The notes under the pieces were generated by a model. The model saw only the letters and a program-made list of their open reading frames with translations. It did no database searches and was not told the origin of the DNA. From Candidatus Zixiibacteriota bacterium (GTDB taxonomy: Bacteria > Zixibacteria > MSB-5A5 > JAABVY01): a DNA stretch of 64,000 nt. Position 1 is the first letter of the stretch. The number at the start of each line of letters is the position of its first letter. The stretch is from NCBI GenBank assembly GCA_011056555.1, contig DSEQ01000025.1, positions 3,736 to 67,735 on the forward strand, in the 5' to 3' direction. Below are positions 28,824 to 51,434 of the stretch, piece by piece. Made by a program: the position numbers and the translations under genes.

Positions 28824-28833
28824 ATCAGCCCTC

Positions 28834-30777
28834 TTAATTAGTCTTTTCCATATTCGGTGACAGTTTTTCCTTGATCTCTCCGCAACGCAGCATCATAGCG
28901 CCGTAAAACGAATTATAGACGGTATCTACAGTCTGGAGCCAGTAGGCCCCCTGGTTATCACGCGCCATCGGACAGAAAGTCAGGAAATAATCCTGGTCCG
29001 AGGCGTGTCCGAATGTTTCCTGCATTTCAATAATAACATTAGAAAGACCATAAAATGCATCGCGTGATTCTTCGATATTCTCGGCCTCGATGCCGGCCTC
29101 TGCATCCGCGATCATCTGCCCGGAATACTTTATCCATTTCATATGCGCATGATCCTTGAACAGGCCCATATCAACATTTTTGACCGACTTTTTTAATCCG
29201 CTGTAAGCTTCTGTAGCCTTGTCCAGCTCATCCGAGGCAAGCGCCATCTGCACATCAAAATAATGCGCATATACCGGGGTCAGGGCCTGCAATGTTTCAG
29301 GATCAAGCGTCACAGCTTCGGGTTCTTTCTGCCCGGAGGAGGGCCGCGATATGGGAGATTGCTGGCCATGCTGATGGGCCGGGCTGCCCCCTCCGCCTTC
29401 CACAAACATCATACTGGGCCGGGCCTGAATCTGAAGCTCGCTGTCGATCTTGAAGGCACCATTGGTAACAACCATTTCACCTTCAGAGAGGCCGGACTTG
29501 ACAACATATAAGTCTCCCGCACGCGGACCCAGTTCAACCTCTCGCCCTTCAAAGACAGGCTTGTCTCCGTCGCTCAGTTCGATATACACAACCGCGCGCT
29601 TTCCTGTCAGAAGAGGAGCGGAAGCCGGTATTACAAGCGGCGCCTCGGATTCCGAATCAGCCAACCGGTCATTGATCACATTTCCTTCCCTGTCCAGAAC
29701 CGACATAATAGTACCGCTTACAAACATGTCTGGCTTGAGCAGACCCTTCGGGTTATCCACTTCGGTCCGTACTCTGGCTGTACGGCTTTGAGGATTGATC
29801 ACAGGATCGATAAAGGTTATTTCAGCGTTGAATTCCTTTCCCGGGAAGGATGGGGATGTGAACACAACATTCTGGCCGACCTTAAGCCAGGGCAGATCGG
29901 TTTCATAGGCGTCGAAAAGCACCCAGATACTGGAAAGGTCGGCTATGGTATAGATTTGAGTGCCGGTCTTCACATACATTCCTTCTTTGGCGTTCTTTTC
30001 GACCACCACTCCGCTGACAGGAGATTTCAGCTTGACCTGCTCCAGCACAACTTCTGATTCTTCAATATCCTTTATTTGGCCTTCAGTCAGACCATAAAGC
30101 CGCAGCTTCTCACGAGCGGATTGAAGCGTCAGGCTGGCGGTCGACTTCAAAACAGAGCTGCCGTTGTTGAGCCTCTCGACCGACTGTTTGGCCTGCAGAA
30201 GTTCTTCCTGAGCGCTTATCAGTTCGGGTGAATAGATGTGTACCATATGTTCACCTTTCTGGACTGTCTCGCCTGTGAAATCAACGAACATTTTATCGAG
30301 CCTTCCGGGAACCCAGGCGGTGATATAGGAAACCTCAGCTTCATCATACGCAATCCTGCCGTTCATCCTGATCTCGGACTCAGCGAAGGCGCGTCTTACC
30401 GGAGTGGTTTGAATGAGAGCCAGTTTCTTGGCAGTTTCGGACATCTTTAACTGGCGCGGTCCCAGATCACCGCTGTTGTCCGATTCAAGCGGGATCAAGT
30501 CCATGAAGCAAATCGGACATTTTCCCGGCTCAGAGAGCTTTATCTGGGGATGCATGGAGCAGGTCCAGGTCGTCGGCTCGGATGAAGCGGCCTGCGCCTC
30601 GGCCTGGCTGTGCTCATGATTGGCGGCAGTGTTTGCCGATTCACCCCCCCGGCCTCCCGAGACTATCATGCCGAAGGAGAACACCACAACTAAAATCGCA
30701 ATGAATACAATCAGTCCCTTTCCCTTGCGCGGTATAAATCCCAGCAGGCTGTCATTATTATTTCTATGTTCAGTCAT
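28834..30777 (-). CDS. cusB: efflux RND periplasmic adaptor (CusB-like) with an N-terminal heavy-metal-binding Cys motif and a C-terminal DUF3347-like extension
   Basis: CSMHPQIKLSEPGKCPICFMDL (HMBD), then beta-barrel/lipoyl/MP domains, then a helical C-terminal extension (YAHYFDVQMALASDELD...). Confidence 0.8.
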   Translation of the reverse strand: MTEHRNNNDSLLGFIPRKGKGLIVFIAILVVVFSFGMIVSGGRGGESANTAANHEHSQAEAQAASSEPTTWTCSMHPQIKLSEPGKCPICFMDLIPLESDNSGDLGPRQLKMSETAKKLALIQTTPVRRAFAESEIRMNGRIAYDEAEVSYITAWVPGRLDKMFVDFTGETVQKGEHMVHIYSPELISAQEELLQAKQSVERLNNGSSVLKSTASLTLQSAREKLRLYGLTEGQIKDIEESEVVLEQVKLKSPVSGVVVEKNAKEGMYVKTGTQIYTIADLSSIWVLFDAYETDLPWLKVGQNVVFTSPSFPGKEFNAEITFIDPVINPQSRTARVRTEVDNPKGLLKPDMFVSGTIMSVLDREGNVINDRLADSESEAPLVIPASAPLLTGKRAVVYIELSDGDKPVFEGREVELGPRAGDLYVVKSGLSEGEMVVTNGAFKIDSELQIQARPSMMFVEGGGGSPAHQHGQQSPISRPSSGQKEPEAVTLDPETLQALTPVYAHYFDVQMALASDELDKATEAYSGLKKSVKNVDMGLFKDHAHMKWIKYSGQMIADAEAGIEAENIEESRDAFYGLSNVIIEMQETFGHASDQDYFLTFCPMARDNQGAYWLQTVDTVYNSFYGAMMLRCGEIKEKLSPNMEKTN

Positions 30778-30807
30778 GTCATTTCTCCTTTCAGCACCAG
30801 GTTCCTG

Positions 30808-31344
30808 TTACATCTCGTGCTGATGCCCATCCGTTTCCATTTTCATTTCAGGCTCTTCTGCTTGCTCATCTGTGGATGACTTTTCATCGAGTTTCATCAG
30901 ATACTTCTGAGGGTCTTCTTCAAATGACGCGACACATCCGGCACAGCAGAAATAAACCCTGCGTCCTTCGTAATCAGCATAAACTTCCTTTTTTTCCAGC
31001 TCCTTACCGGAAACCGGGCAGGTTGTCTGAATATTCTCGAACAGTACGCCTTCGGCGGCTGCCTTCTTAAAATATTTATCCGGATCGGCAACAAGCGCAC
31101 CGGAACATCCCGGACAGCAATGATACACCCTCTGGCCCTGGATATCGGTGTAGACTTCCTTATCTATCTTGCCGCCCATAACCGGGCAAATGGTTTGCGC
31201 TTTCATTTCCACAGCATCAGCTTTCTCCGCACTTTCGGACTTTGCGGTTTTTTCTGCCTTCTCATGCCCCTCGCCTGCCAAGGCCAGTCCGAATGTGAAA
31301 ATGGAAAGTGCAAATACGATTGAGAAAAATTGAAGCTTTTTCAT
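30808..31344 (-). CDS. secreted tandem YHS/TRASH-domain metal-binding protein
   Basis: Signal peptide. Two repeats of TCPV-G-x(n)-Y...CC-GC (TCPVMGGKI...YHCCPGCSG; TCPVSGKEL...YFCCAGCVA). Confidence 0.65.
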   Translation of the reverse strand: MKKLQFFSIVFALSIFTFGLALAGEGHEKAEKTAKSESAEKADAVEMKAQTICPVMGGKIDKEVYTDIQGQRVYHCCPGCSGALVADPDKYFKKAAAEGVLFENIQTTCPVSGKELEKKEVYADYEGRRVYFCCAGCVASFEEDPQKYLMKLDEKSSTDEQAEEPEMKMETDGHQHEM

Positions 31345-31364
31345 CAGCAGCTCCTTTCAAAAAG

Positions 31365-32747
31365 TTAATTGGTTAAATCGGTTTCTAATTCTTTTCCGGT
31401 TAAAACCTCTATCTCGGCCCCGCTTTTGGCCAGATCAGTTTTTGCTTTTTCAAATTTCAAAAGAAAATCCAGAAGCAGCCTCTGTGCATCGAGCACACTC
31501 AAAAAATCAGCCTCGCCCGCCTGATATGCGGAAAAAGATACATTCAGTGACTGCTCCGCCTTGGGAATCAGGCCGTCACGATACAGGCTGACCTTGCGCA
31601 AGGCGTCATTGTGCCTGTAAACTGCTTCCTCCATAATGGTAGCTATATGATTTTCAGAGTTGGCCAGCTTTTCCCGGGTCATCTTATGGCGCGCCTCTGC
31701 TTCCTCTTTTCTGGCCTTATTTTTGCCGAACCAGATAGGAATATTTATGCTGGCTGAAACCATCCAGGGATCCTTCCCGCTATCCTCCAGCGAGGGATTT
31801 ATGGCGTCGCCTGTTTCGATATAATCCACACCGAAAGTGAAGCTGGGATAAGATGATTTGCTCGCCAACCGGATTCCTGCCTCCTCCTTCTCAACCAGCG
31901 ATCTGATAACATCAAGATCGGGATTATTCTGTATCGCGGCCGAAATCAAGGAATCTTCTGAAAGCGTCAATTCATCAACCTCCATCGTATCAGGAACCGG
32001 AATAGGCCGGGAATCTTTTAGATTCAATGCTTCAAGCAGGCGTGCTCTGGCTGGACGAAGCCTGTCTTCAAGGCTCTGTAGACGATCCTCCAGCATGCCC
32101 AGTTCTACCTGGGCCTTGATGACATCGGGATGCCCTTTCTGGCCCACCTTGTATTTGATGCGGGCCACCGATTCCCAGAATTTTAACAGCTCAAAATTAT
32201 CCTCAGTCAACTGGATTTCTCTTCCGAGATAGTAGAGATCGTAGTATGCGGCCTTAACCTGGTAGATCAGCCTCAGCCTGGCCGATTGATAATTCTTATA
32301 AGCGGCATTAGCTGCCTCCAGCGCGATCTCTTTTCTGGCGCCGAGGGTGCCGAACCAGGGGAAGCTCTGCTTCAGGCCGATCCTGAATTCCTGGGGTCCG
32401 ACACGAGTTTCCACATTCTCGATGAAGTGACCGTAGGAGATCATCGGATCGGGCAGGGCCCCAGCATAGCCGGCTTTTTCAAGCTCGGATTTCCAGCGGT
32501 AAAAAGCCGCCTTCAAAGCGGGATTATTTTTCATCGCAATTTTCAGGTAATCCTCAAGCCTGGCGCTGGAATCGATGCCGATTGATCCGGGAGCATCCTG
32601 CTGGTAAAAATGCTCCAGCGAATCCGCCAGTCTTTCGGCTTCGCCCTTATCCAGCGCATATAATAATGAAGGCAAAATCACCAGAGTGACTGCCATCGCC
32701 ATAATTTCTAGTCCTCTTTTTCTCACTAACTTCATCATATCGCCCAT
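31365..32747 (-). CDS. cusC: TolC-family outer-membrane efflux protein (CusC-like OMF), first gene of the cus operon
   Basis: Signal peptide; two OEP repeats; 460 aa. Confidence 0.8.
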   Translation of the reverse strand: MGDMMKLVRKRGLEIMAMAVTLVILPSLLYALDKGEAERLADSLEHFYQQDAPGSIGIDSSARLEDYLKIAMKNNPALKAAFYRWKSELEKAGYAGALPDPMISYGHFIENVETRVGPQEFRIGLKQSFPWFGTLGARKEIALEAANAAYKNYQSARLRLIYQVKAAYYDLYYLGREIQLTEDNFELLKFWESVARIKYKVGQKGHPDVIKAQVELGMLEDRLQSLEDRLRPARARLLEALNLKDSRPIPVPDTMEVDELTLSEDSLISAAIQNNPDLDVIRSLVEKEEAGIRLASKSSYPSFTFGVDYIETGDAINPSLEDSGKDPWMVSASINIPIWFGKNKARKEEAEARHKMTREKLANSENHIATIMEEAVYRHNDALRKVSLYRDGLIPKAEQSLNVSFSAYQAGEADFLSVLDAQRLLLDFLLKFEKAKTDLAKSGAEIEVLTGKELETDLTN

Positions 32748-32890: not shown

Positions 32891-33943
32891 TCAGCAGATT
32901 CTGGGAAGCTGTTCTCCGCTTAACATATCAACTATTCTTTCGGTGCCTATTCTGGTTTTTAATGTAACCAGACCCGATTCTTCTTTTGTAACCTTCCCGA
33001 TGATTGCGGGTGAAAAATCGTGATCAGCCGCATTGATAATCACAAGTGCTTTCCCAGCATCGCCGGGCTTAACAAACATGACAAAGCGCCCCTCATTGGC
33101 AACATAAATCGGATCAAACCCGAGCATTTCGCAGGCCCCGCGCACACCCTTGCTGATGATGATGGACTTCTCTTCCAATTCTATCCGGAATTTCGAACTG
33201 CGGGCAATTTCGACACAAGCTGTGGCCAGACCTCCGCGGGTAAGATCGCGCAGGCAGTGAATCTCGATGCCGGCTTCCAGCAGTTTCATGATAACATCTG
33301 AAAGGGATATACAATCGCTTTCTATTTCAGTATCGAACGACAGCCTCTCACGTTTTGCCATCACCGCCATTCCATGCCTTCCAATATCCCCGTTAAGGAT
33401 TACAGCATCCCCCGGCCTTATACTTGAGGGCCTGATATTCAAATCGTGTTCAATAATTCCGATTCCTGCCGTATTAATATAAATCTGGTCGCATTTACCT
33501 TTATCGACTACTTTCGTATCGCCGGTAATAATTTTAGCTCCGGCATTTGCAGCCTCCCTTCGCATCGACAGGCAGATTTTCCAGAGTGTCTCGATTTCCA
33601 GACCTTCTTCCAGAATAAATCCGACGCTTATATACAGGGGGCGCGCCCCGCTCATGGCCAGATCATTGACCGTACCGCAAACAGCCAGCTTGCCTATATC
33701 GCCGCCCGGAAAAAAGATCGGTTGTATGACATATGAATCGGTGGTATAAGCAAGCCTTCCAGACGGTGCATGAATAACCGCGCTGTCATGCTCGCTTTCA
33801 AGACTGGAAGAATAAAAGGCGGCTACAAAAAGCTTTTCTATCAACTCATGCATCAGGCGTCCACCGCCCCCATGAGCCATCCTGATATGCGGATATTTAT
33901 CTTTTGGAATGGGGCACTCTTTTTCTCTCGGGTCAGCATCCAT
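32891..33943 (-). CDS. hypE: hydrogenase expression/formation protein HypE
   Basis: AIR-synthase-related fold with the MAHGGGG N-terminal motif and the C-terminal conserved Cys tail (PRIC). Confidence 0.9.
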
Positions 33944-35053
33944 CTATTCAAGCCCTGTCTTTTGCAGATCCAACTTACGGTAGCTATAGTAAGCGCTGCA
34001 TGCGCCCTCGGAGGAAACCATTGTCGCCCCAAGCGGATTTTCGGGAGTACATCTGGTGCCAAATGCCGGACAGTCGAATGGTTTCCGTGTGCCTTTCAGA
34101 ATCTCAGCGCTAATACATTCCCCGCTTTGATCCGAAATATCATCGACTTTTCCGAATTTCTCCTCGGCATCATACTGTCTGTACTTATCGCTTATTGCAA
34201 GACCGCTGGATTCTATCATCCCAAGCCCGCGCCATCTTCTATCCACGATTGTCAATACATCTTCCATAACCCTGCGCGCCTCTGCATTTCCCTCTCGTTT
34301 TACCGAACGGGAATACTGATTTTCAACCATAGCTCTTCCATCCTCAAGCTGCGCTAAAGACATATATATTCCCTGGATGATATCCAGAGGCTCGAATCCG
34401 GTGACCACAATTGGAACACTATATCCTGCAGACAATTCCTCGTACTGTTCGAAGCCGCTGACAGTGCATACATGACCGGCCGCAAGAAAAGCGTCGACTT
34501 TATTATTATCTGATGACAATATCACTTCCATGGCCGGAGGAATCAGAACCATCGCAGATAAAACCGAGAAGTTCTCGAGTCCAACCAGACCGGCCTGAAG
34601 GATTGACATCGCATTGGCAGGCGCCGTGGTCTCAAATCCGATCCCGAAAAAGACTACTTCCTTGTCAGGATTTTCCTGTGCGATTCTGAGCGCGTCAAGA
34701 GGAGAATAGACTACACGAAGATCGCCCCCGGCAGACTTAACACTAAACAGATCTCCTGCTGATCCCGGCACGCGCATCATATCCCCGAATGAGCAGAATA
34801 TCACATTTTCGCGGCCGGCGATCTCGATTGCCTTGTCGATAATGCTGAGCGGGGTGACACAGACCGGGCATCCGGGGCCGTGCAAAAGCGTAATCCTGTC
34901 GGGCAAGAGCTGATCCAGCCCGTGTCTGACAATGGCATGGGTCTGTCCCCCGCAGACCTCCATTATGTTCCAGTCTCGGCTTGTTATGCTTTTTATTTTC
35001 TCTGCAAAAGCGGCCACAGCCCGGGGATTATGATATTCGTCGATATATTTCAT
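33944..35053 (-). CDS. hypD: hydrogenase formation protein HypD
   Basis: [10 protein letters not shown]..; motifs CGGQTH and [10 protein letters not shown]. Confidence 0.9.
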
Positions 35054-35301
35054 TGCCTGTCCGCCTCTTCCATCATGCCGTCAATTTCATCGAGATATTC
35101 AAAGACTCTCTGCGCCTCATCCTCATCAACCATGCTGATAGCAAAACCGGCATGCACAATCACGTAGTCACCAATATTAGCATCCGGTACAAGTGACAGG
35201 TTTATTTGCTTGATAACCCCGCCGAAATTGACACGGCCGGTGTGCATCAAAGAATCGTCTCTTTCAATGCCGATAATCTTTCCCGGTATGGCCAGACACA
35301 T
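35050..35301 (-). CDS. hypC: hydrogenase assembly chaperone HypC/HupF
   Basis: [10 protein letters not shown]-terminus; 83 aa; ATGA overlap with hypD. Confidence 0.85.
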
Positions 35302-35306
35302 TTATC

Positions 35307-37616
35307 TTACTCCATAGATTCTTCTCTGGAAACTGCCATAATCTGACCCAACGAGATCCCGCCGTCATTAGGTGGAACCAGGTTGTGCCAGTATGGCAGA
35401 AAGCCCTCTTTCTTCAGGCGGTCAACCGCTTTTTCGGTCAAATACTTGTTCTGGAAACATCCGCCCGAAAGCACGACACGCTTCTTCCCATAAATCTTCG
35501 CAATCTCAACAATCATCTCAGCCAGTGTATTATGAAATCTTGCGGCAATTCGGTTTATGGAAATATCTCTACCATAGTCCTTGTTGATGTCATTGATCAT
35601 CTTTTCCCAATCTATAATATGTATATCTCCCTTTCTGGCAAGATCAAATGAGTAGCTCCCGAGATCATCAGACTTCTCCGCCGCAAATTCCAGCAGCATG
35701 GCTGCCTCTCCCTCGAAGTCGATTTCGTGGCAAAGTCCGATTATTGAGGCGACCGCGTCAAACAGGCGTCCCATACTCGATGTTCGCGGGCAATTGATCT
35801 CATTTTTCAACGCGCCCAGGAGTGGCTGCTTCTGTTCCGGCCTGAACCTGTCCAGAGGATTATTCTTTTCCATCCCGATGATATCTCGTCCATAAAGCTC
35901 GTACATCATCCCCAGCGCCGACCGTCTGGGTCTCAAAATTGCCCTCTCACCGCCGGGAAGCGGGAATGTCCTCAGATGGGCAATTCGCTGGTACGATTTA
36001 CCATCAATAGCCAGAAACTCTCCGCCCCAGATAGTGCCATCCTCGCCATACCCGCTGCCATCCCAGGCCACACCCAGGACATCAGAACTCAGACCATTTT
36101 CTGCCATACAGCTCAGGATGTGCGCATGATGATGCTGCACCTGCAGCAGTGGAGGTCCGCTTTTCCCGGCATAAACTGTGGAATAATAATCGGGATGCTT
36201 GTCGCAGGCTATAATGTCGGGCTTGAATTCATAAATATCAGAAAGTGAATTTATGGTGTCATTGAATGTGTCGATAGAAAGTCTCGTATCCAGGTCACCT
36301 ATGTGCTGGCTCATGAAAACATTCTTGCCTGATGACAGGGCGATAGTATTTTTCTGATGTGCCCCCACTGACAGGCTCGGCCTGGAGGGTTCTTTCAGAT
36401 ATATCGGCAGCGGAGCATAACCGCGCGCTCGTCTGAGGACAAGCTCTCTTGCGGCCGCCACGCGCACGATTGAATCGTCCACATGTCTTGCAATCGGCCG
36501 GTTGTGCACAAGAAATAGATCAGCGACACCCGACAGTCTTGCGAGAGCTTCCTTTTCATCGGTACAGATCGGCTCCTCGGCCAAATTTCCGCTGGTGGCC
36601 ACAACCGGAATTTTCAATTTGTGCATCAAGATATGATGCAATGGTGTGTAGGGCAGCATGATCCCAAGATAGGGATTATCCGGCGCGATACCCTTGAGAG
36701 GCCGAGGTGTACTTTCCAGGCCAAACCGCTTTCGCTTCAGAAGCACAATCGGAGCCTCGGATGATGTCAGTAGTTTTCTTTCAAGCTCGCTGACCTCGCA
36801 CTCCTGTTCAACCATAGCTATATTGGGATACATGAGTGCAAAGGGCTTCTTCTTTCGGCTTTTCAAACTCCGCAACCGCCTGACCGCCTGATAATTCTGT
36901 GCATCGACTATCAGATGAAATCCCCCCAGACCTTTCAAAGCCAGTATTTCACCGCCCAAAACAGCTTCGCAGGCCAGATCCAGAGCCTCATTACGCAGCG
37001 CCAGAGCCTCCCCGGATTTATCCCACAATTCCAGATGCGGTCCGCATCGGGGGCAGGCATTGGGCTGGGCATGAAAACGACGATTTACAGGATTTTCATA
37101 TTCCTCGCGGCACTCGTCGCACATTTCAAAAATTTTCATCGTGGTCATGGCGCGGTCATAGGGCAGCCCTTCTATAATACTATAGCGCGGACCGCAGTTC
37201 GTGCAGTTTGTGAAGGGGTAAAGGTAATGCCTGTTTTCAGGATCGAATATTTCGCGCAGACAGTCCGGGCAGGTTGCGATATCCGGCAGGACCACAGCCG
37301 TTTTATCTCCTGATGATTGGCTGTCGATGATCCGAAAGCCGGTTTCATTTTTCGGATCGATGTACTTCCGCCCGATATCGTCTATTCTGGAATGAACGGG
37401 CCTTTCAGCTTTTAATAATTCCGGGAATGTTTCAATATTTTTGCTATCACCCTCCAGTTCGATTTCTACACCACCTGACGAGTTGTTTATCCATCCCGAT
37501 AATCCTAGTCTTGACGCCAGCCTATAGACTGTCGGACGAAAACCCACACCCTGGACAGCGCCGCTGATCCTGAGATTTACACGTTTGAGCTGTCTATTTG
37601 AAATATTTGCTTTCAT
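35307..37616 (-). CDS. hypF: carbamoyltransferase HypF
   Basis: Acylphosphatase domain, two Zn-finger CxxC pairs, YrdC and Kae1-like domains; 769 aa. Confidence 0.9.
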   Translation of the reverse strand: MKANISNRQLKRVNLRISGAVQGVGFRPTVYRLASRLGLSGWINNSSGGVEIELEGDSKNIETFPELLKAERPVHSRIDDIGRKYIDPKNETGFRIIDSQSSGDKTAVVLPDIATCPDCLREIFDPENRHYLYPFTNCTNCGPRYSIIEGLPYDRAMTTMKIFEMCDECREEYENPVNRRFHAQPNACPRCGPHLELWDKSGEALALRNEALDLACEAVLGGEILALKGLGGFHLIVDAQNYQAVRRLRSLKSRKKKPFALMYPNIAMVEQECEVSELERKLLTSSEAPIVLLKRKRFGLESTPRPLKGIAPDNPYLGIMLPYTPLHHILMHKLKIPVVATSGNLAEEPICTDEKEALARLSGVADLFLVHNRPIARHVDDSIVRVAAARELVLRRARGYAPLPIYLKEPSRPSLSVGAHQKNTIALSSGKNVFMSQHIGDLDTRLSIDTFNDTINSLSDIYEFKPDIIACDKHPDYYSTVYAGKSGPPLLQVQHHHAHILSCMAENGLSSDVLGVAWDGSGYGEDGTIWGGEFLAIDGKSYQRIAHLRTFPLPGGERAILRPRRSALGMMYELYGRDIIGMEKNNPLDRFRPEQKQPLLGALKNEINCPRTSSMGRLFDAVASIIGLCHEIDFEGEAAMLLEFAAEKSDDLGSYSFDLARKGDIHIIDWEKMINDINKDYGRDISINRIAARFHNTLAEMIVEIAKIYGKKRVVLSGGCFQNKYLTEKAVDRLKKEGFLPYWHNLVPPNDGGISLGQIMAVSREESME

Positions 37617-37656: not shown

Positions 37657-38154
37657 TCATGATAAATAAACCAGCTCATCGATCTCTTGCTTGATCTTGA
37701 TAATTACTTTGCTGATCGCAGGCTTGATCTCTTGTGAAAAACACTTTCCGTGCTCAAAATTCCTGCATTCGATACAATAGACAATCAATTTCTCGGGTAA
37801 ACTCTCCAGGGTTCGAGCAAGCTCGATCGCCTCTCTAAGATTAAATGTGTGTGTGGATAAACTCGAGGTGATGTCCTCGGGAATTTCCTCGTTTAATGCA
37901 TCAAATCGAAAAACTGTTCCGGGTTCACATCCGGAGCATACGGCATCCACAAAGAATACATGCTTTCGTTTCTTCCAATGTTCTATCAGTTTTGTGCTGT
38001 CCCCTACATCCTTTATATATCTTGTCCGATCAGGGTAAAGCTGGAAGATCTTTTTTGCTATCACCGGACCCACCGCATCATCAGAGCGGAATTCATTTCC
38101 GGCGCCTACCAAAAGGATAAGGTCTTCCTCCTGCATCGTAGCTACCTCACTCAC
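37657..38154 (-). CDS. hydrogenase maturation endopeptidase (HycI/HoxW family)
   Basis: [25 protein letters not shown]... with the conserved Asp/His metal ligands. Placed directly downstream of the large subunit. Confidence 0.75.
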
Positions 38155-39436
38155 GGTCTATGGTTAGCTTCAGGAAATGGCAGGAGCAGGAGATGCAGGG
38201 ATCGTAGTTGCGAACGGCCTGTTCACATTTCCAGGTTAACTCGTCATGGGACAGGTTCAGGTTCTTCGAGACAAATTCTGTAAGATCCTCTTCTACCGAT
38301 GATTGATTCTGTGAGGTTGGCGGAATAATTCTGGCATCTTTAATAATGCCATTCTTGTCAATCTGATAACGATGGTAGAGTGTCCCGCGAGGAGCTTCCG
38401 TGGCGCCATGCCCGACGCCTTCTTGTGGTTCTATCTCTATATATGGTTGATCCGGCATTTCACAACTGGCGATTATGCGGAGCGCCTCATCACAGGCGTA
38501 TAATGTCTCAACCGCCCTTACTATTATGCTTTTGAAGGGATTATTGCAGGTCTTGCTCAGGCCGGCTTCTTTGGCGGCCTCTTTTGAGATCTTTGAGAGT
38601 TTATTGAAATTAAGACTGTAACGCGCCATTGGCCCGGTCATGTACGAACCGCGCCCCTTTACAGAGGCCTGCAGCGAGGTGGAATGCTTGACGTGATGTT
38701 CCTCGAAATAATCCAGGAACTGTTCAACACCGATATCGATGCCCTTATTGGAGGCTATCCCGCCCTCATCAATGGGGTACTCGCTTTCATGACTCACGCT
38801 TACGAATTCATAATCCCGTTCAAAATCGGGGAAGTCAAAGGTCGAGACCCATTTTACAGTTTCCAGTGAAGCATCCCGTGCCCATTTCAATGGCTCAACC
38901 ATCTTCTGCAGTTCTTTCTTGTTGGGGACTTTATAAAATCCGCCGACCCGAATATTGATGGGATGGATTTCGCGGCCACCCATCAGGATCATCAGATCAT
39001 TGCCGATCTTCTTGAGCTTTAGGCCTCGTTTTACAACATCCGGGTAATCTTTTGCCATCCCGATCGCATCCTCATATCCCAGAAAATCGGGGGCATGCAG
39101 CATATAAATATGCAGGCCATGGCTTTCGATCCATTCACCGCAGTAAATCAGTCTTCTCAAATCGCGAAGCGGCCCCTCGACCTTGACACCGCAGGCCATC
39201 TCCATCGCATGGCAAGAGCTCATCATGTAGGCAATCGGGCAGATCCCGCAAATTCGGGCGGTGATATCCGGGGCCTCGGTGAATTTCCGTCCGCGCAGAA
39301 AAGCCTCGAAAAACCTGGGCGGCTCGAATATATTCAGCTTTGCTTCCTTAACCTCATCACCGCGGATTTTGACCTGAAGTCCACCCTCTCCCTCGACACG
39401 GGCCAGGTAATCCACCTTGATCGATTTACCTTTCAT
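38147..39436 (-). CDS. NiFe hydrogenase large subunit, group 3b (sulfhydrogenase alpha, HydA-type)
   Basis: N-terminal L1 motif [10 protein letters not shown] and C-terminal DPCISCSCH (DPCxxCxxH). About 430 aa, typical of group 3. Start at MKGKSIKV (an internal ATG of the listed ORF). Confidence 0.85.
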
Positions 39437-40205
39437 GAGCTTCACTCTCCTTCCGGAATGAATCGGCATAGGCATTAAAATTGCGGAAGAATCTGGTCAG
39501 GTCGTCTCTGGAAACATTGAGTTTTTTACACCATTCGGCCAGTGAATTTGTATTGGGTGTTTCCTTGGGTCCGAAGCATCCATAACAGCCCCGATTATAG
39601 GAGGGACACAATGCGCCGCATCCAGCCTGTGTCACCGGACCCAGGCAGGGAGTACCATGCGCGACCATCACGCAGATGTTACCCTTGCGCTTGCATTCCA
39701 TGCACACGCTGTAGGGCGGGATAATCGGCTTCCTGCCGATCAAAAAAGCGCTTACAACCTCGAGCAGCTGGTATTTATTGATAGGACAGCCGCGCAATTC
39801 GTAGTCCACAAATACATGATCTGAAATCGGCGTGGACTTGTTCAGGGTTACGATATATTCCGGGCTGGGGTAAACTATAGCAACAAAATCCTTCACATCG
39901 CTGAAATTTCTGAGCGCCTGTATTCCGCCCGCGGTGGCACAGGCGCCAATCGTCACCAGCACTTTGGAAGCCCTTCTTACCTTATGAATCCGCTCTGCAT
40001 CATGCGGTGTGGTAATCGAACCTTCCACCAGAGAAACATCATATGGACCCTTGATGACTGCACGGGAGGCCTCCGGGAAATTGGCAATCGTAATCTTATC
40101 CGCAACTGCCAGAAGTTCATCTTCACAGTCTAGAAGACTAAGCTGGCAGCCATCGCATGAGGCGAATTTCCATACCGCGAGTTTTGGTTTACGCTCCCTG
40201 GCCAT
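39426..40205 (-). CDS. NiFe hydrogenase small subunit, group 3 (sulfhydrogenase delta)
   Basis: N-terminal CDGCQ proximal-cluster motif plus further Cys ligands; 259 aa. Confidence 0.85.
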
Positions 40206-40206
40206 A

Positions 40207-41073
40207 TCAATACTCTCGCCTGGTGAAGATTTCTTTAATATCGGAGTACCTGAATACAGGGCCGTCTTTGCAGACGAATAACGGACCCATCTGGCAGTGT
40301 CCGCACAGGCCGATTCCGCATTTCATATTTCTTTCCATGGACACATAGATGTCCGCGGGTTCCACGCCACGTTTCTGGAGCCCCAGCGCGCTGAAGCGCA
40401 TCATGATCTCCGGCCCGCAGACCATAGCTGTGCAGTTTAGATGATCGAACGGCGCCCTTCCGATCAGATTGGTCACCACGCCGACATTACCGCGCCAGGA
40501 GCCAGTTCCGCGATCGACAGTTATATGAACTTCGAGGTCAAGACGGGATCGCCACTTTTCCAGTTCCTTTTGGTACAGGATATCGCTGGGAGTTCTGGCT
40601 CCGTATAACAATACGATCTTGCCGTAATTCTCTCTGTGTGCCAGGAGGTAATACATTACCGGGCGCAACGGGGCCATACCGATACCGCCGGCCACCAGGA
40701 CAACATCATTACCCTCGGCCTCTTCCACCGGCCAGCTCGTGCCCAACGGCCCGCGTACTCCAAGAGTGCGGCCCGATTTCAGGCTGTCCATAGCCTTGGT
40801 GACATTACCGACCGCACGGGTTGTATGCACCAGCTTCTCCGGTCTGGTAGGATCGCCGCTGATCGAAATCGGCACCTCCCCCACACCGAAGACATAGATC
40901 ATATTGAACTGCCCGGGCTTAAAATCGAACTTTTTCGGTCCGGAGACAGGCTTCAGTTCCATGGAAAATGTATCCACGGTATCGCGTCTGAAGCGCTGAA
41001 TCATGAACTGCCGGGGCATCATCGGATCATCTTTAAATCCGATTGCCTTTTTATTCTTTTGTATTTCCGCCAT
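40207..41073 (-). CDS. sulfhydrogenase gamma subunit (FAD/NAD(P)-binding, 2Fe-2S; DHOD electron-transfer-subunit-like)
   Basis: Alignable to Pyrococcus HydG (GVGEVPISI; C-terminal [16 protein letters not shown]...CKDGPVF). The start is uncertain (TTG 41130 / ATG 41073 / ATG 41022). Confidence 0.75.
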
Positions 41074-41518
41074 ACACATCAAATAGTTGCATTCGGGTTG
41101 CTTCCAGGCGCTGGGCCATGAGTCTGGCAAAACGCCTCATTAATTCATAACCGAGCTCGTGATCTTCATCCATTTTACCGCGCAGGCATTTACCGTCCAA
41201 TGCGATCGCTCTGGTTAATTCGACCGCGCGAGCGTCGAAATGCCAGCGATAGGGCGGTATCAACCATGACCAACCGGTGACATCCCCGGTTTCACGGGTC
41301 TGAATCGCTATCGGACCTTTTTGCGGGATATAAGTTTCAATTATAATCTTACCGTGCCTGATAAAATAGAAATGGTTAGCCTCGTCCCCTTCACGGAAAA
41401 GAAATTCATCCTTCTTGAAAACAACATTGGAGCCGCAGCCGGTAATAAAATCGATATGCCGTTGCTCCAATCCCTCCAGGAATGGATGCTCTTTTAGTAC
41501 TTTTGCCAGAGATTCCAT
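41051..41518 (-). CDS. stand-alone cyclic-nucleotide-binding (cNMP/CAP effector) domain protein with no DNA-binding domain, embedded in the hydrogenase operon
   Basis: FKKDEFLFREGDEANHFYFIRHGKIII...RETGDVTGW...RAVELTRAIAL beta-roll motif. RBS GAGGAA sits 7 nt upstream, only 4 nt after the beta-subunit stop. Confidence 0.7.
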   Translation of the reverse strand: MESLAKVLKEHPFLEGLEQRHIDFITGCGSNVVFKKDEFLFREGDEANHFYFIRHGKIIIETYIPQKGPIAIQTRETGDVTGWSWLIPPYRWHFDARAVELTRAIALDGKCLRGKMDEDHELGYELMRRFARLMAQRLEATRMQLFDVYGGNTKE

Positions 41519-41522
41519 AAAT

Positions 41523-42659
41523 CTATTCCTCTTTATCTGCCATTATTTTGCCTTTTCCTTCACTTTCCCTGATGGCCTGAACTTCCTCGGTAATATCGAT
41601 TCCCACCGGGCACCAGGTAATGCATCTGCCGCAACCGACACAGCCCGACATCCCGAATTGATCGATCCAACTCGCCAGTTTGTGAGTCAGCCATTGACGA
41701 TACCGAGCCTTGGCTGAAGTGCGCACACTTCCTCCGTATATATAGGAATGATCCAGTGTAAAACATGAATCCCATTTGCGCACACGTTTGGCCGAATTGA
41801 CCTCGAGGCCGGAGATGTCCTCGATGTTTATGCAGAAACAGGTTGGGCACACTAAAGTGCAATTGCCGCAATTCAAACATCTCTGCGCAACTACTTCCCA
41901 GCGGGAACTCTCGAAATTGCGGTAAAGCAGCTCCTTTATGTCGTCTGTATCGAGCCGCCGGCCCATTTTATTCTCGGCCTCTTTCATCAGCCGGTCGGCT
42001 GTCTCGATCGCATTTTGATCAGCTTCTTTGCCCTTGATCTCCTTCATGATTTTTTCGCCGGCCTTTGTACCGGATTCAATCAAGAAATAGTGACCGCTGT
42101 TGTCAACAATTTCCGTGATCGCCAGGTCAAATCCCTTGGTGGCCCTGGGACCAGTACCCATCGAGACACAGAAACAGGTGCCGCCCGGACGCACACAATT
42201 CACAGCAACAATGAAAATATTCTGTCGGCATCTTTCATAATCCGCATCCTTATACGGCCCTTCAAGAAGAATCTCATCCTGGATCCGGATCGCCTCGATT
42301 TCACAGGCGCGGACGCCGATAAATGCCCGTTTGTGGATTTCCTGCTTATTTTCCACAATCTCGAAGCCGTCACCTTTACGCTTCAGCTCAAACAGCTTCT
42401 TCTCAGGCGGATAAAGATATCTTTTCCAGGTATGCTGGCCGACAACATAATCAAAGTATTTCTTGCCGCCCGATTTTACCAGTCTATATCTTCCGCCGTC
42501 CTGTTCATCAGTATACCCAACCGGCAAATCATCCACGTTTGTAATTTCATCATATATAAGGGCCGAATTATCCAGGGTGGGACCGATTATTTGATATTTT
42601 TCTGAAATCAGCGTATCAAAAAGACTTTGCAGGTTACCACTTTCGAGAACCAGAATCAT
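41523..42659 (-). CDS. sulfhydrogenase beta subunit (4Fe-4S cluster protein, HydB-type)
   Basis: Cys clusters CLNCGNCTLVCPTCFC and CVGCGRCITWCP. First gene of the beta-gamma-delta-alpha order typical of group 3b. Confidence 0.8.
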   Translation of the reverse strand: MILVLESGNLQSLFDTLISEKYQIIGPTLDNSALIYDEITNVDDLPVGYTDEQDGGRYRLVKSGGKKYFDYVVGQHTWKRYLYPPEKKLFELKRKGDGFEIVENKQEIHKRAFIGVRACEIEAIRIQDEILLEGPYKDADYERCRQNIFIVAVNCVRPGGTCFCVSMGTGPRATKGFDLAITEIVDNSGHYFLIESGTKAGEKIMKEIKGKEADQNAIETADRLMKEAENKMGRRLDTDDIKELLYRNFESSRWEVVAQRCLNCGNCTLVCPTCFCINIEDISGLEVNSAKRVRKWDSCFTLDHSYIYGGSVRTSAKARYRQWLTHKLASWIDQFGMSGCVGCGRCITWCPVGIDITEEVQAIRESEGKGKIMADKEE

Positions 42660-42681
42660 CCGCCAAATCCTTCAATCGACA

Positions 42682-42699
42682 TTGTGATTTATTTCACAA
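42682..42699. promoter_or_regulatory. CRP/FNR-family-type operator TTGTGA-N6-TCACAA between a TTGACA-N17-TATTTT promoter and the hydB start
   Basis: Perfect TGTGA-N6-TCACA palindrome, 23-42 nt upstream of the hydB ATG. Confidence 0.55.
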
Positions 42700-42812
42700 T
42701 TTATACTCAAAATATGATTGTATTCATTGACTGTCAAGAAGAAAAATAGATTAATCTATTTCATGCTGTATCTGTTAGATACCGCATTCATGAGCTCACG
42801 GCAACAAGAACT

Positions 42813-43508
42813 TTAAATTATTCTTAGACCGGAAATTTTTACAGCCCCGCGATGATAACCATCGGGAAATAGTCTCTCAAGATCATCCAGATCGATTTTA
42901 TTATCTTCGCAGGTCTCATAAACGGTCGGAATCTCATTCTTTTTGGCAAACCTGTCTCGCAGATAATGTATTATCTGCCAGTGCCTTTCGGACAGTTTGC
43001 CGCCTGGGATTTTCATATCTGCAGCGCGATGGGCGGCCTAAAATTCATCCCAGTCATCGGGGTTGACCAAGAATCCGCGCACATCAACCTGGTATACTTT
43101 TTCGGTGGCAATCACATCGTAATCTTTTTCGGTCGTGGGCATGAAATTCTGGCCGAGATAACCCTGTTTATAGGTTACTCCCGCAATCCTGCAGGCCCCG
43201 CGAAGATAGCCGGATGGAAACAGTCGCAGCAGGTCACTGAGACCAAGTTTGCACATGCGGCATGTCTCATAAACTGTCGGGCATTTCCCTTTTTCTTGAA
43301 ACTCAAGCCTGACGTAATAAATCACATCCCAGTGCTCCTCGGTCAACTTGGGAGGCATGCCGAGCTGCATGGCAGTCCATTCGGCAAAATCCTCGTCCCA
43401 GATGAAGAAATCGATCAGAAAATCATGAGAGTCAACCGAGTAAGTCTTATCCTTATAATTTACAATGCTCATGACTGGCTCCTTGTTAAAATCCGAAAAA
43501 CGCAGCAT
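42813..43508 (-). CDS. two-domain (tandem) DsrC/TusE/DsvC-family protein lacking the C-terminal Cys arm; the second domain is interrupted by an in-frame TAG at 43038-43040
   Basis: Domain C (MSIVNYKDKTYSVD...LFPSGYLRGACRIAGV), a linker, then domain D (KVYQVDVRGFLVNPDDWDEF*AAHRAADMKIPGG...GLRII). The stop replaces a Phe/Tyr conserved in the three paralogous domains. Confidence 0.55.
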
Positions 43509-44165
43509 TAAACCAGCCGCAAACCGGCTATTTTTATAATGCCGCGATGATAGCCATCCGGGAAGAGACTCTCGAGTTCGTCAAATTCAAGGTTAAATTC
43601 TTCACAAGTCCTGTAAACTGTGGGAATTCCCCCGAATTCCCTGAAATAGGCCCGCACAAAACGGATGATTCTCCAGTGCTGATCGGTCAATTTCCCGTCG
43701 GGAATCTGGCTTTCCATTGCCCGGTGCGAGGCAAAATCCTCATCCCAGTCATCAGGATTCATCAAGAATCCGTGGACGTCAATAACATAAGTCTTCTCTT
43801 CAACATGGACTTCCTCTTCCTCGACCTCCTCGTAAGGAATCCTTCCCAGATTGGTCTGCCTGTAGCTCAATCCGGCCAGCTTACAGGCCCCTCTCTGATA
43901 GCCGCTGGGGAAAAGCTGGCTGAGATCCTTCAGACGCAAATTATTTTTTTCTGCAGGTTTGATATAAGAGAGGACACTGGCCCGTCTCCTCAAAGTTTTT
44001 CCTTATGAACTTTATTACTTCCCAGTGCCGGCCCGTCAACCCGCCGTCAATTCCAAGGGATTGTGCTATACCTTCGGCGAAGACATCGTCCCACTCGTCA
44101 TAATTCTCGAGAAAACCGGATTGATCGACTTTATATGTCTTGCCCTTATAGCTAAATGTCCTCAT
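43508..44165 (-). CDS. two-domain (tandem) DsrC/TusE/DsvC-family protein, paralog of the previous gene; the first domain is interrupted by a frameshift at an A7 homopolymer (43934-43940)
   Basis: Domain A (MRTFSYKGKTYKVDQSGFL...QTCRK) continues in the +1 frame (NNLRLKDLSQLFPSGYQRGACKLAGL...) into domain B (...HRGIIKIAGLRLV). The TAATG stop/start overlaps the next gene. Confidence 0.55.
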
Positions 44166-50279: not shown

Positions 50280-50948
50280 CTAAGCGTTCTTCTTTCGTGA
50301 GACCTGCTCGCGCAGCCAGTCACACCAGAGATTAAGGTTGTCTCCTGTGCGGCAGGAAATGCGCATGATATGCAGGCTGCCATTGATCTGCCGGGCATTC
50401 TTTTCAGCTTTATCGATATCGAAATCGGATAATCCCAGAAGATCGATCTTGTTTATCACCAGGGCTGATGACTTTCGAAACATGGCCGGGTACTTGAGCG
50501 GTTTATCATCCCCCTCGGTGGTACTGATCAGAACCACTTTCATATCCTCTCCCAGATCAAACCCGGATGGACATACCAGATTGCCCACATTTTCTATGAA
50601 AAGCAGATCGAGAGAATCGGTATCTATCTTCTCTAAGGCTTTGCCCAGCATGCGCGCATCCAGATGGCAGGCGCCCCCGGTTATAATCGGGCGGACAATT
50701 TTTCCGCCCGCACGCTCGAGCCTTATGGCGTCGTTCTCGGTCTGGACATCTCCTGCGATCAGGCCAATCCTGAATTCATCTTTCAAAAGCGAAAGCGTTT
50801 TTTCCAGCAGGCTTGTTTTGCCTGATCCCGGGGAGCTCACAAGGTTTAATGCCAATATTTTTCTTGCTCCCAGATCTTTTCTTATCTGAGCCGCCAGCTT
50901 ATCATTTTCAGACAGCACTTTTTCTTCTACCTGCACTCTCTCAGCCAT
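50280..50948 (-). CDS. hypB: hydrogenase nickel incorporation GTPase HypB
   Basis: GSGKT P-loop, CH motif, G-domain; 222 aa. Confidence 0.9.
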   Translation of the reverse strand: MAERVQVEEKVLSENDKLAAQIRKDLGARKILALNLVSSPGSGKTSLLEKTLSLLKDEFRIGLIAGDVQTENDAIRLERAGGKIVRPIITGGACHLDARMLGKALEKIDTDSLDLLFIENVGNLVCPSGFDLGEDMKVVLISTTEGDDKPLKYPAMFRKSSALVINKIDLLGLSDFDIDKAEKNARQINGSLHIMRISCRTGDNLNLWCDWLREQVSRKKNA

Positions 50949-50969
50949 GTTTTCCTCAATACTTCAATG

Positions 50970-51311
50970 CTACTCAAAAGTCAGATGTGTAATTATCAGT
51001 TCCTCACCCTTGCGGACTTCCACTTCGTAAGATCCGCACCCGGGACAGATAAAAACAAATTCATCAATTATAAACTCTCTGCCGCATGACCGGCAAACAG
51101 CCTCGATCGAAACAGTCTCGATTTTCAACTCTGTCCCCGAAAGCTCCGTTTCTTTCTTCAACATATCAAAGGCAAAGCGCAGCGATTCCGGGTCGATACA
51201 ACTCAATTTTCCGACTTTGACTCCGATCTCTTTTAAGACGTTGAAATTACGGCTCTGCATCTCCTGTTGGGAAAAACTGATTATCTCCCGGGCCACTCTC
51301 ATTTCATGCAC
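50970..51311 (-). CDS. hypA: hydrogenase nickel insertion protein HypA (probable GTG start giving MHEM...)
   Basis: MHE N-terminus and two CxxC pairs (CRSCG, CPGCG). Confidence 0.8.
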   Translation of the reverse strand: MHEMRVAREIISFSQQEMQSRNFNVLKEIGVKVGKLSCIDPESLRFAFDMLKKETELSGTELKIETVSIEAVCRSCGREFIIDEFVFICPGCGSYEVEVRKGEELIITHLTFE

Positions 51312-51434
51312 GCTGATATCCCGCTTGCAGCTTTTTATCTCCAAGCTACCGACGGGTAGGATATTGTCAAATGAAAAAATGTAATGACAGAATTATAAAT
51401 ATATCAGCCCGAAAACAGGAGGTCTGGAATGTTT

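Follow-up and report, generated by a model that had tools for sequence, protein, structure and literature searches.

Group 3b [NiFe]-hydrogenases count among the hydrogenases found most widely in bacteria from soil and sediment, and those of mycobacteria and their relatives are tied to survival under hypoxia. To our knowledge, everything known about their structure and biochemistry comes from the archaeal sulfhydrogenases, which have four subunits and a contiguous hydBGDA operon. The locus described here, located in a 64-kb stretch of DNA from a Candidatus Zixiibacteriota bacterium (hereafter the window), raises the question of what a small protein consisting only of a cyclic nucleotide-binding (CNB) domain is doing in an operon of this type, where its gene separates those of the beta and gamma subunits. 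An initial annotation knew of no description of this arrangement, and had proposed that the CNB protein could tie the activity of the hydrogenase to a nucleotide second messenger.

Operon layout and hydrogenase group

All genes of the hydrogenase operon lie on the minus strand, in the order beta, CNB protein, gamma, delta, alpha, HycI-type protease and hypFCDE. The first gene (41523..42659) codes for a HydB/AsrA-like beta subunit of 378 aa with a 4Fe-4S dicluster domain (PF17179 Fer4_22, E = 1.5e-34). Beyond the CNB gene (41051..41518), the HydG/AsrB-like gamma subunit (40207..41022; 271 aa) combines FAD/NAD(P)-binding and 2Fe-2S domains (PF00175 NAD_binding_1 and PF10418 DHODB_Fe-S_bind). Its start was placed at the ATG at 41022, 28 nt downstream of the CNB stop codon, since homologues align from residue 1 there; the ORF list instead gave a TTG at 41130. 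The 259-aa delta (small) subunit (39426..40205; Oxidored_q6, PF01058, E = 6.6e-23), which is 62-84% identical among the operons surveyed, and the 429-aa alpha (large, Ni-Fe) subunit (38147..39436; PF00374 NiFeSe_Hases) are encoded by reading frames that overlap by 11 nt. The HycI-type maturation endopeptidase follows (37657..38154; PF01750, E = 1.2e-12), and then hypF (35307-37616), hypC (35050-35301) and hypD (33944-35053), each recognized by its Pfam match, and a putative hypE (32891-33943), assigned by inspection of its translation, the last residues of which are PRIC. A weak candidate promoter, TTGACA-17-TATTTT (42709..42737, minus strand), is found in the 153-nt gap 5′ of beta; the region holds 11 promoter-like sites, no excess over the 10.6 expected from shuffled sequence, so that only the position of this one is suggestive. 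An Rfam scan of the whole window gave no match.

Pfam identified the full four-gene set of a group 3b enzyme, i.e. a Fer4_22 beta, a gamma with FAD/NAD and 2Fe-2S domains, an Oxidored_q6 delta, and alpha, and the alpha translation contains the Ni-Fe ligand motifs RICGIC and DPCISCSCH, in agreement with the patterns RxCGxC and DPCxxC(x)2H. The closest solved relatives of alpha are the sulfhydrogenase alpha chains of P. furiosus and T. kodakarensis (9nez_D, E = 1.2e-73; 5yxy_A, E = 1.2e-69), whereas matches to other groups in the PDB are weaker (Mvh, 3e-48; an NAD-reducing 3d enzyme, 1e-38; 3c, 3a and 3d all 3e-48 or worse). Beta likewise matches a sulfhydrogenase beta chain (9nez_B, E = 3.5e-37). 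All four enzyme subunits are homologous to those of the archaeal sulfhydrogenases I and II (P. furiosus, T. kodakarensis; PDB 9nez, 9e15, 5yxy), and it is archaeal chains of this kind that alpha and beta match best in the PDB, where no bacterial 3b structure was found. Based on the Pfam and PDB matches and the ligand motifs, the assignment to group 3b (sulfhydrogenase-type) made in the initial annotation holds, and an NAD(P)-linked bidirectional H2 activity is predicted.

A stand-alone CNB protein with a family of its own

The product of the gene between beta and gamma is a stand-alone, CRP-like protein of 155 aa. It matches PF00027 over residues 32-118 with 45.8 bits (cut-off 27.5; E = 5.9e-12), and Pfam detected neither a second domain nor a helix-turn-helix (HTH) in the protein, which ends at residue 155 after a C-terminal helix. 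The AF2 model (pLDDT 94.1) consists of a beta-roll and a 30-residue C-helix, and its best Foldseek matches are 3mdp, MtbCRP and GlxR. That is, Pfam, the structural model and Foldseek agree on the beta-roll of a canonical CNB domain, and the CAP-type beta-roll without HTH that had initially been described is confirmed, with the C-helix as an addition. The sensor-domain fold and the C-helix are common to CRP/FNR factors (MtbCRP, GlxR, DNR, FNR; TM ~0.75-0.80); however, these carry a C-terminal winged-helix DNA-binding domain, which the CNB protein lacks, and its cAMP cassette is degenerate. The best structural match, 3mdp (E = 1.7e-12; rmsd 1.7 Å over 134 columns), which is also the best single-domain match by sequence profile (91 bits), corresponds to Gmet_1532 of Geobacter metallireducens. 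This is also a stand-alone CNB protein, but a structural-genomics entry, with an identity of only 23%; no solved PDB chain is closely related to the CNB protein.

Homologues number 3916, nearly all of them about 155 aa long, and those with E <= 1e-30 form 237 clusters at 50% identity. The window protein carries the sequence GWSWLIPPYRW, the signature of a CNB-like family of 3b operons (GWSW...PPYRW), to which it conforms in motif, length and position. Family members share 40-94% identity across the full length and the window ORF is intact, which rules out a pseudogene or a gene-calling artefact. An FNR-like Fe-S or thiol sensor was also considered and rejected: Cys28, Cys111 and Cys116 are conserved in 87%, 67% and 59% of members, respectively, and none is universal. 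The three occur together in 36 of 82 members and are all missing from seven, and the window protein has Met in place of Cys at position 116.

The phosphate-binding cassette is degenerate

In the canonical cassette of cNMP-binding domains (G-E-L-A-L...R-[ST]-A), the Glu binds the ribose 2′-OH and the Arg binds the cyclic phosphate. The window protein has neither of these residues, its cassette being G82-W83-S84-W85...W92-H93. When the profile was aligned without gaps to the CNB domains of PKG, W83 fell in the Glu column, where 75 of 82 members have Trp, and W92 in the column of the phosphate-binding Arg, where 63 of 82 do. Alignment to E. coli CRP and to HoxI (see below) with hmmalign again showed the Glu-to-Trp replacement, and set CRP Arg82 opposite H93, beside a one-residue insertion in CRP; R91, near the Arg column, is Arg in only 48 of 82 members.

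Sensing of cAMP or cGMP by the CNB protein therefore seems unlikely, because conserved Trp residues replace the canonical Glu and Arg of the cassette, and the proposed second-messenger link is not borne out. A genuine allosteric module that binds cAMP or cGMP and couples the hydrogenase to a second messenger would fit the significant PF00027 match and a fold closest to the cAMP-binding CRP/GlxR and PKG domains, but the Trp substitutions, on which both alignments agree in the case of the Glu, make this reading improbable.

A regular fifth gene of bacterial 3b operons

Scanning genomes with the motif GWSW[LI][VFI][PS]PY, derived from a 14-sequence alignment, gave matches in at least 600 species genomes (599 confirmed), belonging to at least 14 phylum-level lineages. 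The neighbourhoods were examined at 84 loci by tblastn with the operon subunits, including gamma and alpha. The insertion noted in the window is widely present elsewhere: beta lies directly 5′ of the CNB gene at 80 of the 84 loci, gamma is the next gene at every one of the 78 loci with further sequence, and the complete order beta-CNB-gamma-delta-alpha-protease occurs at 60. Bacterial group 3b operons thus regularly contain a fifth gene, the CNB gene, which usually lies between beta and gamma. Its share of such operons, estimated from plasmids only, is 12 of 15. Among the remainder, a Streptomyces plasmid (L088) was checked directly and has a 3b operon without the CNB gene, and two further cases were inferred from match coordinates 11-19 kb apart. 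Similarly, the locus tags of M. smegmatis Hyd3 give beta, gamma, delta and alpha without an extra gene (PMC2799521). Moreover, four of the 84 family members examined stand alone among unrelated genes, and unlinked copies in Actinomycetota adjoin nitroreductase, acyltransferase/polyketide-cyclase and CBS-domain genes. Given the operons without the gene and the solitary members, the enzyme does not strictly require the CNB protein, and the protein is not confined to the enzyme.

With such a distribution the arrangement can hardly be called undescribed. CNB genes of 3b operons are annotated in RefSeq, and papers of 2025 and 2026 mention them in passing, one in the R. equi 3b cluster (PMC13332983) and one under the name HoxI (PMC12319191); beyond these mentions, the literature searched contained no study of what the 3b CNB protein does. 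Members of the same family in the same position include WP_016881449 of Rhodococcus sp. DK17 plasmid pDK1 (33% identity, 130 bits against the family profile) and WP_202821808 of a Burkholderia thailandensis plasmid (50% identity, 231 bits); WP_013415449 of Rhodococcus equi 103S has the same position, known here only from the gene order in PMC13332983. The window gene is a typical example of this known, uncharacterized family: nothing essential distinguishes it from the recorded members, and it adds nothing new beyond that. Genes for universal stress proteins lie on the flanks of the 3b operons of Burkholderia and Rhodococcus.

Comparison with HoxI

A further precedent is HoxI, a CNB subunit of the soluble hydrogenase of C. 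necator that has been known since 2005 (cited in PMC12319191 and PMC3189943). HoxI (C. necator H16 pHG1, L005:24836-25339; 167 aa) is also a small CNB-only protein of a soluble hydrogenase operon. As part of HoxHYFUI2 it attaches loosely to the NAD(H)-side module, and high ionic strength releases it from the diaphorase (PMC3189943). A HoxI homodimer on the diaphorase module confers NADPH activation (PMC3189943; Burgdorf 2005, as cited in PMC12319191), and NADPH, not cAMP, has been proposed as the ligand of HoxI (Burgdorf 2005, as cited in PMC12319191).

HoxI and the window protein share 27% identity over 98 residues. Against the CNB family profile HoxI reaches 54 bits, no better than PKG and CRP domains, whereas family members score 130-250 bits. 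Furthermore, the HoxI cassette retains G-E-L and a Ser, while the 3b CNB family has G-W-S-W and a Trp. Identity, profile score and cassette alignment together rule out orthology. The gene positions differ as well: hoxI follows the protease gene and closes a 3d operon with a HoxFU-type diaphorase, whereas the 3b CNB gene has AsrA/AsrB-like beta and gamma as its neighbours on either side. Annotations of 3b CNB genes as 'cyclic nucleotide-binding' or 'HoxI' should not be taken literally.

Coupling, fusions and a possible role

In the window the beta stop codon (41525-41523) is separated by 4 nt from the CNB ATG at 41518. The junction reads GAGGAATAG-ATTT-ATG, and a Shine-Dalgarno sequence, AGAGGA (41527..41532, minus strand), can be read within the 3′ end of beta, its GAGGA 8 nt before the ATG. 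The tight coupling to beta that had first been noted is therefore real, and the same 4-nt gap is found on the contig encoding a 94%-identical CNB protein (P0001). Overall, the gap from the beta stop to the CNB start has a median of -1 nt and is <= 50 nt at 72 of 80 loci; that from the CNB stop to the gamma start has a median of 33 nt. Beta and CNB form a single ORF in L007, L028 and P0141, and a CNB-gamma fusion (P0259) is present directly after beta on three contigs, two of which were shown to come from different samples; fusions other than P0259 are few, each from a single assembly. In L001, beta-CNB-gamma is retained although delta is reduced to a 50-codon remnant. The fusions on either side, together with retention after loss of alpha-delta, suggest that the CNB protein is a non-catalytic partner of the beta-gamma, i.e. 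NAD(P)-side, module.

That the CNB protein assists or regulates the enzyme as a partner is our preferred and, we think, plausible reading, and we lean towards a non-catalytic subunit residing on the beta-gamma half of the 3b enzyme. The CNB protein would be co-produced with beta and gamma and would bind this half, through which electrons move between NAD(P) and the hydrogenase dimer, probably as a dimer formed through the long C-terminal helix, as in CRP-type proteins. Its role would resemble that of HoxI in the C. necator soluble hydrogenase. Any ligand would presumably not be cAMP or cGMP, and a pyridine nucleotide, as proposed for HoxI, would be the obvious candidate. We are more tentative about the GWSW-type CNB protein being a true fifth subunit, recruited independently of HoxI, with a Trp-lined pocket that would bind a non-cyclic ligand and gate electron flow through beta-gamma; this is possible, though doubtful. 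If it were true, the ligand (NAD(P)H, or a different signal of redox or metabolic state) would set when H2 is evolved or consumed under hypoxia or reductive stress. In any case, many bacterial 3b operons carry a conserved fifth gene with an apparently rebuilt, non-cNMP pocket, sometimes fused to beta or gamma, which offers a concrete target for the purification or structure of a bacterial 3b enzyme.

The conserved position and coupling between beta and gamma could also be those of a dedicated assembly or maturation chaperone of one or both subunits, which would load FeS or FAD, or hold them for alpha-delta docking, and be absent from the mature enzyme. The archaeal four-subunit enzymes work without a CNB protein and some bacterial operons lack the gene, as such a helper would allow. 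However, a protein covalently joined to beta (L007, L028, P0141) or to gamma (P0259) must stay with its partner permanently and at a 1:1 ratio, which is atypical of a transient chaperone, and we know of no chaperone precedent for the CNB fold, so that we regard this explanation as unlikely.

The same fusions argue against an HTH-less CRP/FNR paralogue that would act on transcription indirectly, e.g. through C-helix heterodimers with a full-length CRP/FNR regulator, giving feedback on hydrogenase or hypoxia genes. A CRP-like sensor domain with a dimerization helix but no DNA-binding domain would suit this role, as would the unlinked Actinomycetota copies and the stress-protein genes mentioned above. 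Nevertheless, neither fusion to enzyme subunits nor coupling and an invariant position between them across many phyla would be expected of a regulator, and this seems to us the least probable of the explanations, below even cyclic-nucleotide binding. An accessory partner of beta-gamma remains the reading that we prefer. Finally, relatives with two CNB domains in tandem were considered as evidence for dimerization in the hydrogenase setting and set aside, since P0123, the one whose context is usable, adjoins metal-efflux genes and not a hydrogenase; another such relative, P0121, lies on a contig of about 1 kb.

The CNB gene in the group 3b operon

On the minus strand of the window, beta (41523-42659; 378 aa, PF17179 Fer4_22, E 1.5e-34), the gene for the cNMP-binding-fold (CNB) protein (41051-41518), gamma (from ATG 41022, MMPRQF...; NAD_binding_1 and DHODB_Fe-S_bind), delta (39426-40205; Oxidored_q6), alpha (from ATG 39436, MKGKSIKV...; NiFeSe_Hases) and a HycI-type protease gene (37657-38154) form a single co-oriented set with hypF, hypC, hypD and hypE (32891-33943, assigned by reading the translation). 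The ORFs and Pfam matches thus bear out the gene set and the embedded CNB gene described in the initial annotation. The 155-aa CNB protein matched PF00027 (cNMP_binding) over residues 32-118 with an E-value of 5.9e-12 (45.8 bits, cut-off 27.5), confirming the domain that had been read from the sequence, and this was the sole domain match in a Pfam scan of the protein. The beta/CNB junction reads ...GAGGAA TAG ATTT ATG..., that is, a 4-nt gap with the Shine-Dalgarno sequence lying within beta, a coupling as tight as had been claimed. A mechanical ORF list puts the starts at TTG 41130 for gamma and at 39475 for alpha. Homologues align in tblastn from the ATGs at 41022 and 39436, so that gamma starts 28 nt past the CNB stop, and alpha and delta overlap by 11 nt.

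The closest solved relatives of alpha are the sulfhydrogenase alpha subunits of P. furiosus and T. kodakarensis (E 1e-73 and 1e-70), compared with 1e-48 or worse for solved group 3c, 3a and 3d enzymes, and beta matches sulfhydrogenase beta among solved structures. As judged from these similarities, the proposed assignment of the hydrogenase to group 3b holds. The solved 3b enzymes found in the structure search are archaeal only.

Distribution and gene order of the CNB family

The CNB protein has 3916 relatives in a 90%-clustered database, with identities of up to 94%, nearly all of them stand-alone PF00027 proteins of ~155 aa. An exhaustive HMMER scan of 50%-identity representatives recovered 2033 clusters at E <= 1e-10, of which 237 reached E <= 1e-30. 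When 82 diverse members were aligned, the signature G-x-V-L-G-W-S-W-L-x-P-P-Y-R-W-x-F-D-A-R-A emerged, and the peptide pattern GWSW[LI][VFI][PS]PY, scanned against one genome per species, matched at least 600 species genomes (599 confirmed). The best 80 of these at least 600 matches came from Zixibacteria, Ignavibacteria, Kapaibacteria, Bacteroidota, several classes of Acidobacteriota, Actinomycetota, four classes of Chloroflexota, Planctomycetota (including Brocadia), Armatimonadota, Verrucomicrobiota, Nitrospinota, KSB1, Calditrichota, Sumerlaeota and Binatia. Further family matches were located on plasmids of Burkholderiaceae, Rhodococcus and Streptomyces. The family is widespread and annotated, and the window copy is typical of it.

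A survey of related operons for the same insertion had been suggested, and tblastn of the window's proteins against 84 loci found beta directly upstream of the CNB gene in 80 of them, with gamma next in all 78 loci where the sequence continues. The complete order beta-CNB-gamma-delta-alpha-protease was present in 60 loci, while 20 had partial versions, mostly cut by contig ends, and four had the CNB gene alone. The median gap is -1 nt from the beta stop to the CNB start, with many overlaps of 4 and 14 nt, and 33 nt from the CNB stop to the gamma start; tight coupling of the three genes is general across the family loci. On the metagenomic contig encoding P0001, a CNB protein with 94% identity to that of the window, beta, a 4-nt gap, CNB and gamma follow one another as in the window. 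Where the family occurs in 3b operons, the beta-CNB-gamma arrangement is the rule. Universal stress protein genes flank the 3b operons of the Burkholderia and Rhodococcus plasmids, with CBS-domain and STAS-domain genes also present at the Burkholderia locus, flanks reminiscent of hypoxia or dormancy regulons.

The CNB gene is neither universal in 3b operons nor exclusive to them. A 3b-type delta (at least 60% identity) was found on 15 plasmids, 12 of which carry the embedded CNB gene; in the other three, all from Streptomyces, a family member lies 11-19 kb from delta on the opposite strand. Direct inspection of one of these (L088) gave a beta-gamma spacing of 119 nt with nothing between, and its remote family copy bears the GWSW...PPY motif. 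By its locus tags, Hyd3 of M. smegmatis consists of beta, gamma, delta, alpha and protease with no extra gene (PMC2799521). The four lone-CNB loci are all from Actinomycetota. In the two inspected (L038:7001-7462 and L057:6264-6725), its neighbours are genes for a nitroreductase, an acyltransferase and a polyketide cyclase. In Streptomyces sp. NBC_01340 (L090:3911-4387), a GWSW-motif member ~9 kb from a 3b operon without an embedded CNB gene adjoins CBS-pair genes and a 778-aa ORF resembling, by eye, a P-type ATPase.

Fold and nucleotide pocket

The AF2 model of the CNB protein (pLDDT 94.1, pTM 0.86) comprises N-terminal helices, a beta-roll, a C-helix of 30 residues (120-150) and, at residues 83-86, a short helix equivalent to that of the cassette. 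Foldseek groups it with 3mdp, itself a stand-alone CNB protein, and with the sensor domains of CRP/GlxR; in the structure search, none of the solved structures was a close relative. In an ungapped alignment of the family profile to PKG CNB domains, W83 takes the place of the cassette Glu and W92 that of the phosphate-binding Arg. The Glu-to-Trp substitution was also obtained by hmmalign with HoxI, the CNB-domain subunit of the Cupriavidus necator soluble hydrogenase, and with E. coli CRP, where CRP Arg82 aligns with H93, adjacent to an insertion of one residue in CRP. Trp occupies position 83 in 75 of the 82 aligned members, position 85 in 74 and position 92 in 63, with Pro at position 89 in 79 and Arg at position 91 in 48. 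Because the cassette Glu and Arg columns hold Trp, canonical cAMP or cGMP binding seems unlikely, and the link to a cyclic-nucleotide messenger put forward in the initial annotation is probably wrong.

A semi-conserved cysteine triad is also visible in the alignment (C28, 87%; C111, 67%; position 116, 59%; all three in 36/82 members). The window protein has two of the three, C28 and C111, with M116 in place of the third; in some members the triad might reflect a thiol or metal site.

Relation to HoxI and earlier descriptions

In the R. equi 103S 3b cluster, a cyclic nucleotide-binding domain protein is listed with the FAD/NAD(P) gene on one side and the 4Fe-4S gene on the other (PMC13332983), and the products of the 'M. 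acidophilus' 29 3b cluster are said to include 'HoxI' (PMC12319191). HoxI itself is described as loosely bound to the diaphorase part of HoxHYFUI2 (PMC3189943). It dissociates at high salt and pH. Hydrogenase operons with an accessory protein of the cNMP-domain type are therefore not undescribed, contrary to what had been supposed. The mentions in 3b clusters are passing only, and the searchable literature yielded no work on the function or structure of the family that occurs in 3b operons.

HoxI (plasmid pHG1) shares 27% identity over 98 residues with the window protein; against the family profile its score is 54 bits, compared with 130 bits for the Rhodococcus member, 231 for Burkholderia and 252 for the window. 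Unrelated CNB domains score 56 (a single PKG domain), 71 (MtbCRP) and 91 bits (3mdp), and HoxI is thus no closer to the family than generic CNB domains. The identity and the profile score rule out that the family is HoxI. Moreover, HoxI keeps the cassette G-E-L and the Ser, whereas the family has Trp at the Glu position. These comparisons suggest that the two were recruited in parallel, or at the least that they diverged very long ago.

Proposed site of action

Natural fusions occur on both sides of the CNB gene. A single ORF spans beta and CNB in two species genomes (L007 and L028) and in P0141, and a CNB-gamma fusion (P0259) is encoded in identical sequence on three contigs, at least two of them from different samples, and directly follows beta. 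Furthermore, a decayed operon in Zixibacteria CP070766.1 (L001:4871-7466) retains beta, CNB and gamma intact but, of delta, no more than the initial 50 codons (84% identical), followed by an unrelated opposite-strand gene; alpha and protease are gone. The invariant position, the fusions and this retention tie the CNB protein to the beta-gamma module and not to the Ni-Fe dimer.

C-helices of the CRP type mediate dimerisation. HoxI is reported to be a dimer in the soluble hydrogenase (PMC3189943). Given both, under the most economical model the CNB protein would be an accessory subunit of the 3b hydrogenase, dimeric and located on its NAD(P) side, in keeping with the accessory character rightly assigned to it at the outset. 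A function as assembly factor or an indirect transcriptional role is possible, and we rate either lower than the accessory subunit.

Neighbouring genes

Four DsrC-like (PF04358) domains form an array at 42813-44165 on the minus strand, 153 nt upstream of beta. The array resembles two tandem two-domain genes, both disrupted, one frameshifted within an A8 run (near 43944-43951) and the other interrupted by an in-frame TAG at 43038-43040 within a conserved domain (DEF*AAHRAADMKIPGGKLSERHW). The usual terminal DsrC cysteine arm is absent from all four domains. The P0001 contig has mutM directly upstream of beta and lacks the array, which is therefore an insertion in the window. The genes hypB (cobW/HypB domain) and hypA lie at 50280-51344 on the minus strand, ~8 kb upstream of the operon and apart from hypFCDE; in relatives such as L094 and the Burkholderia locus L003, unlike in the window, hypA directly follows the protease gene. 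Directly after hypE, ORFs at 25044-32747 resemble, from their translations read by eye, an outer-membrane factor, CusB-like and CusA-like efflux set. A tandem two-CNB relative of 348 aa (P0123, JGI 3300050821) immediately precedes an efflux operon of the OEP-CusB-CusA type; the resemblance may be coincidence.
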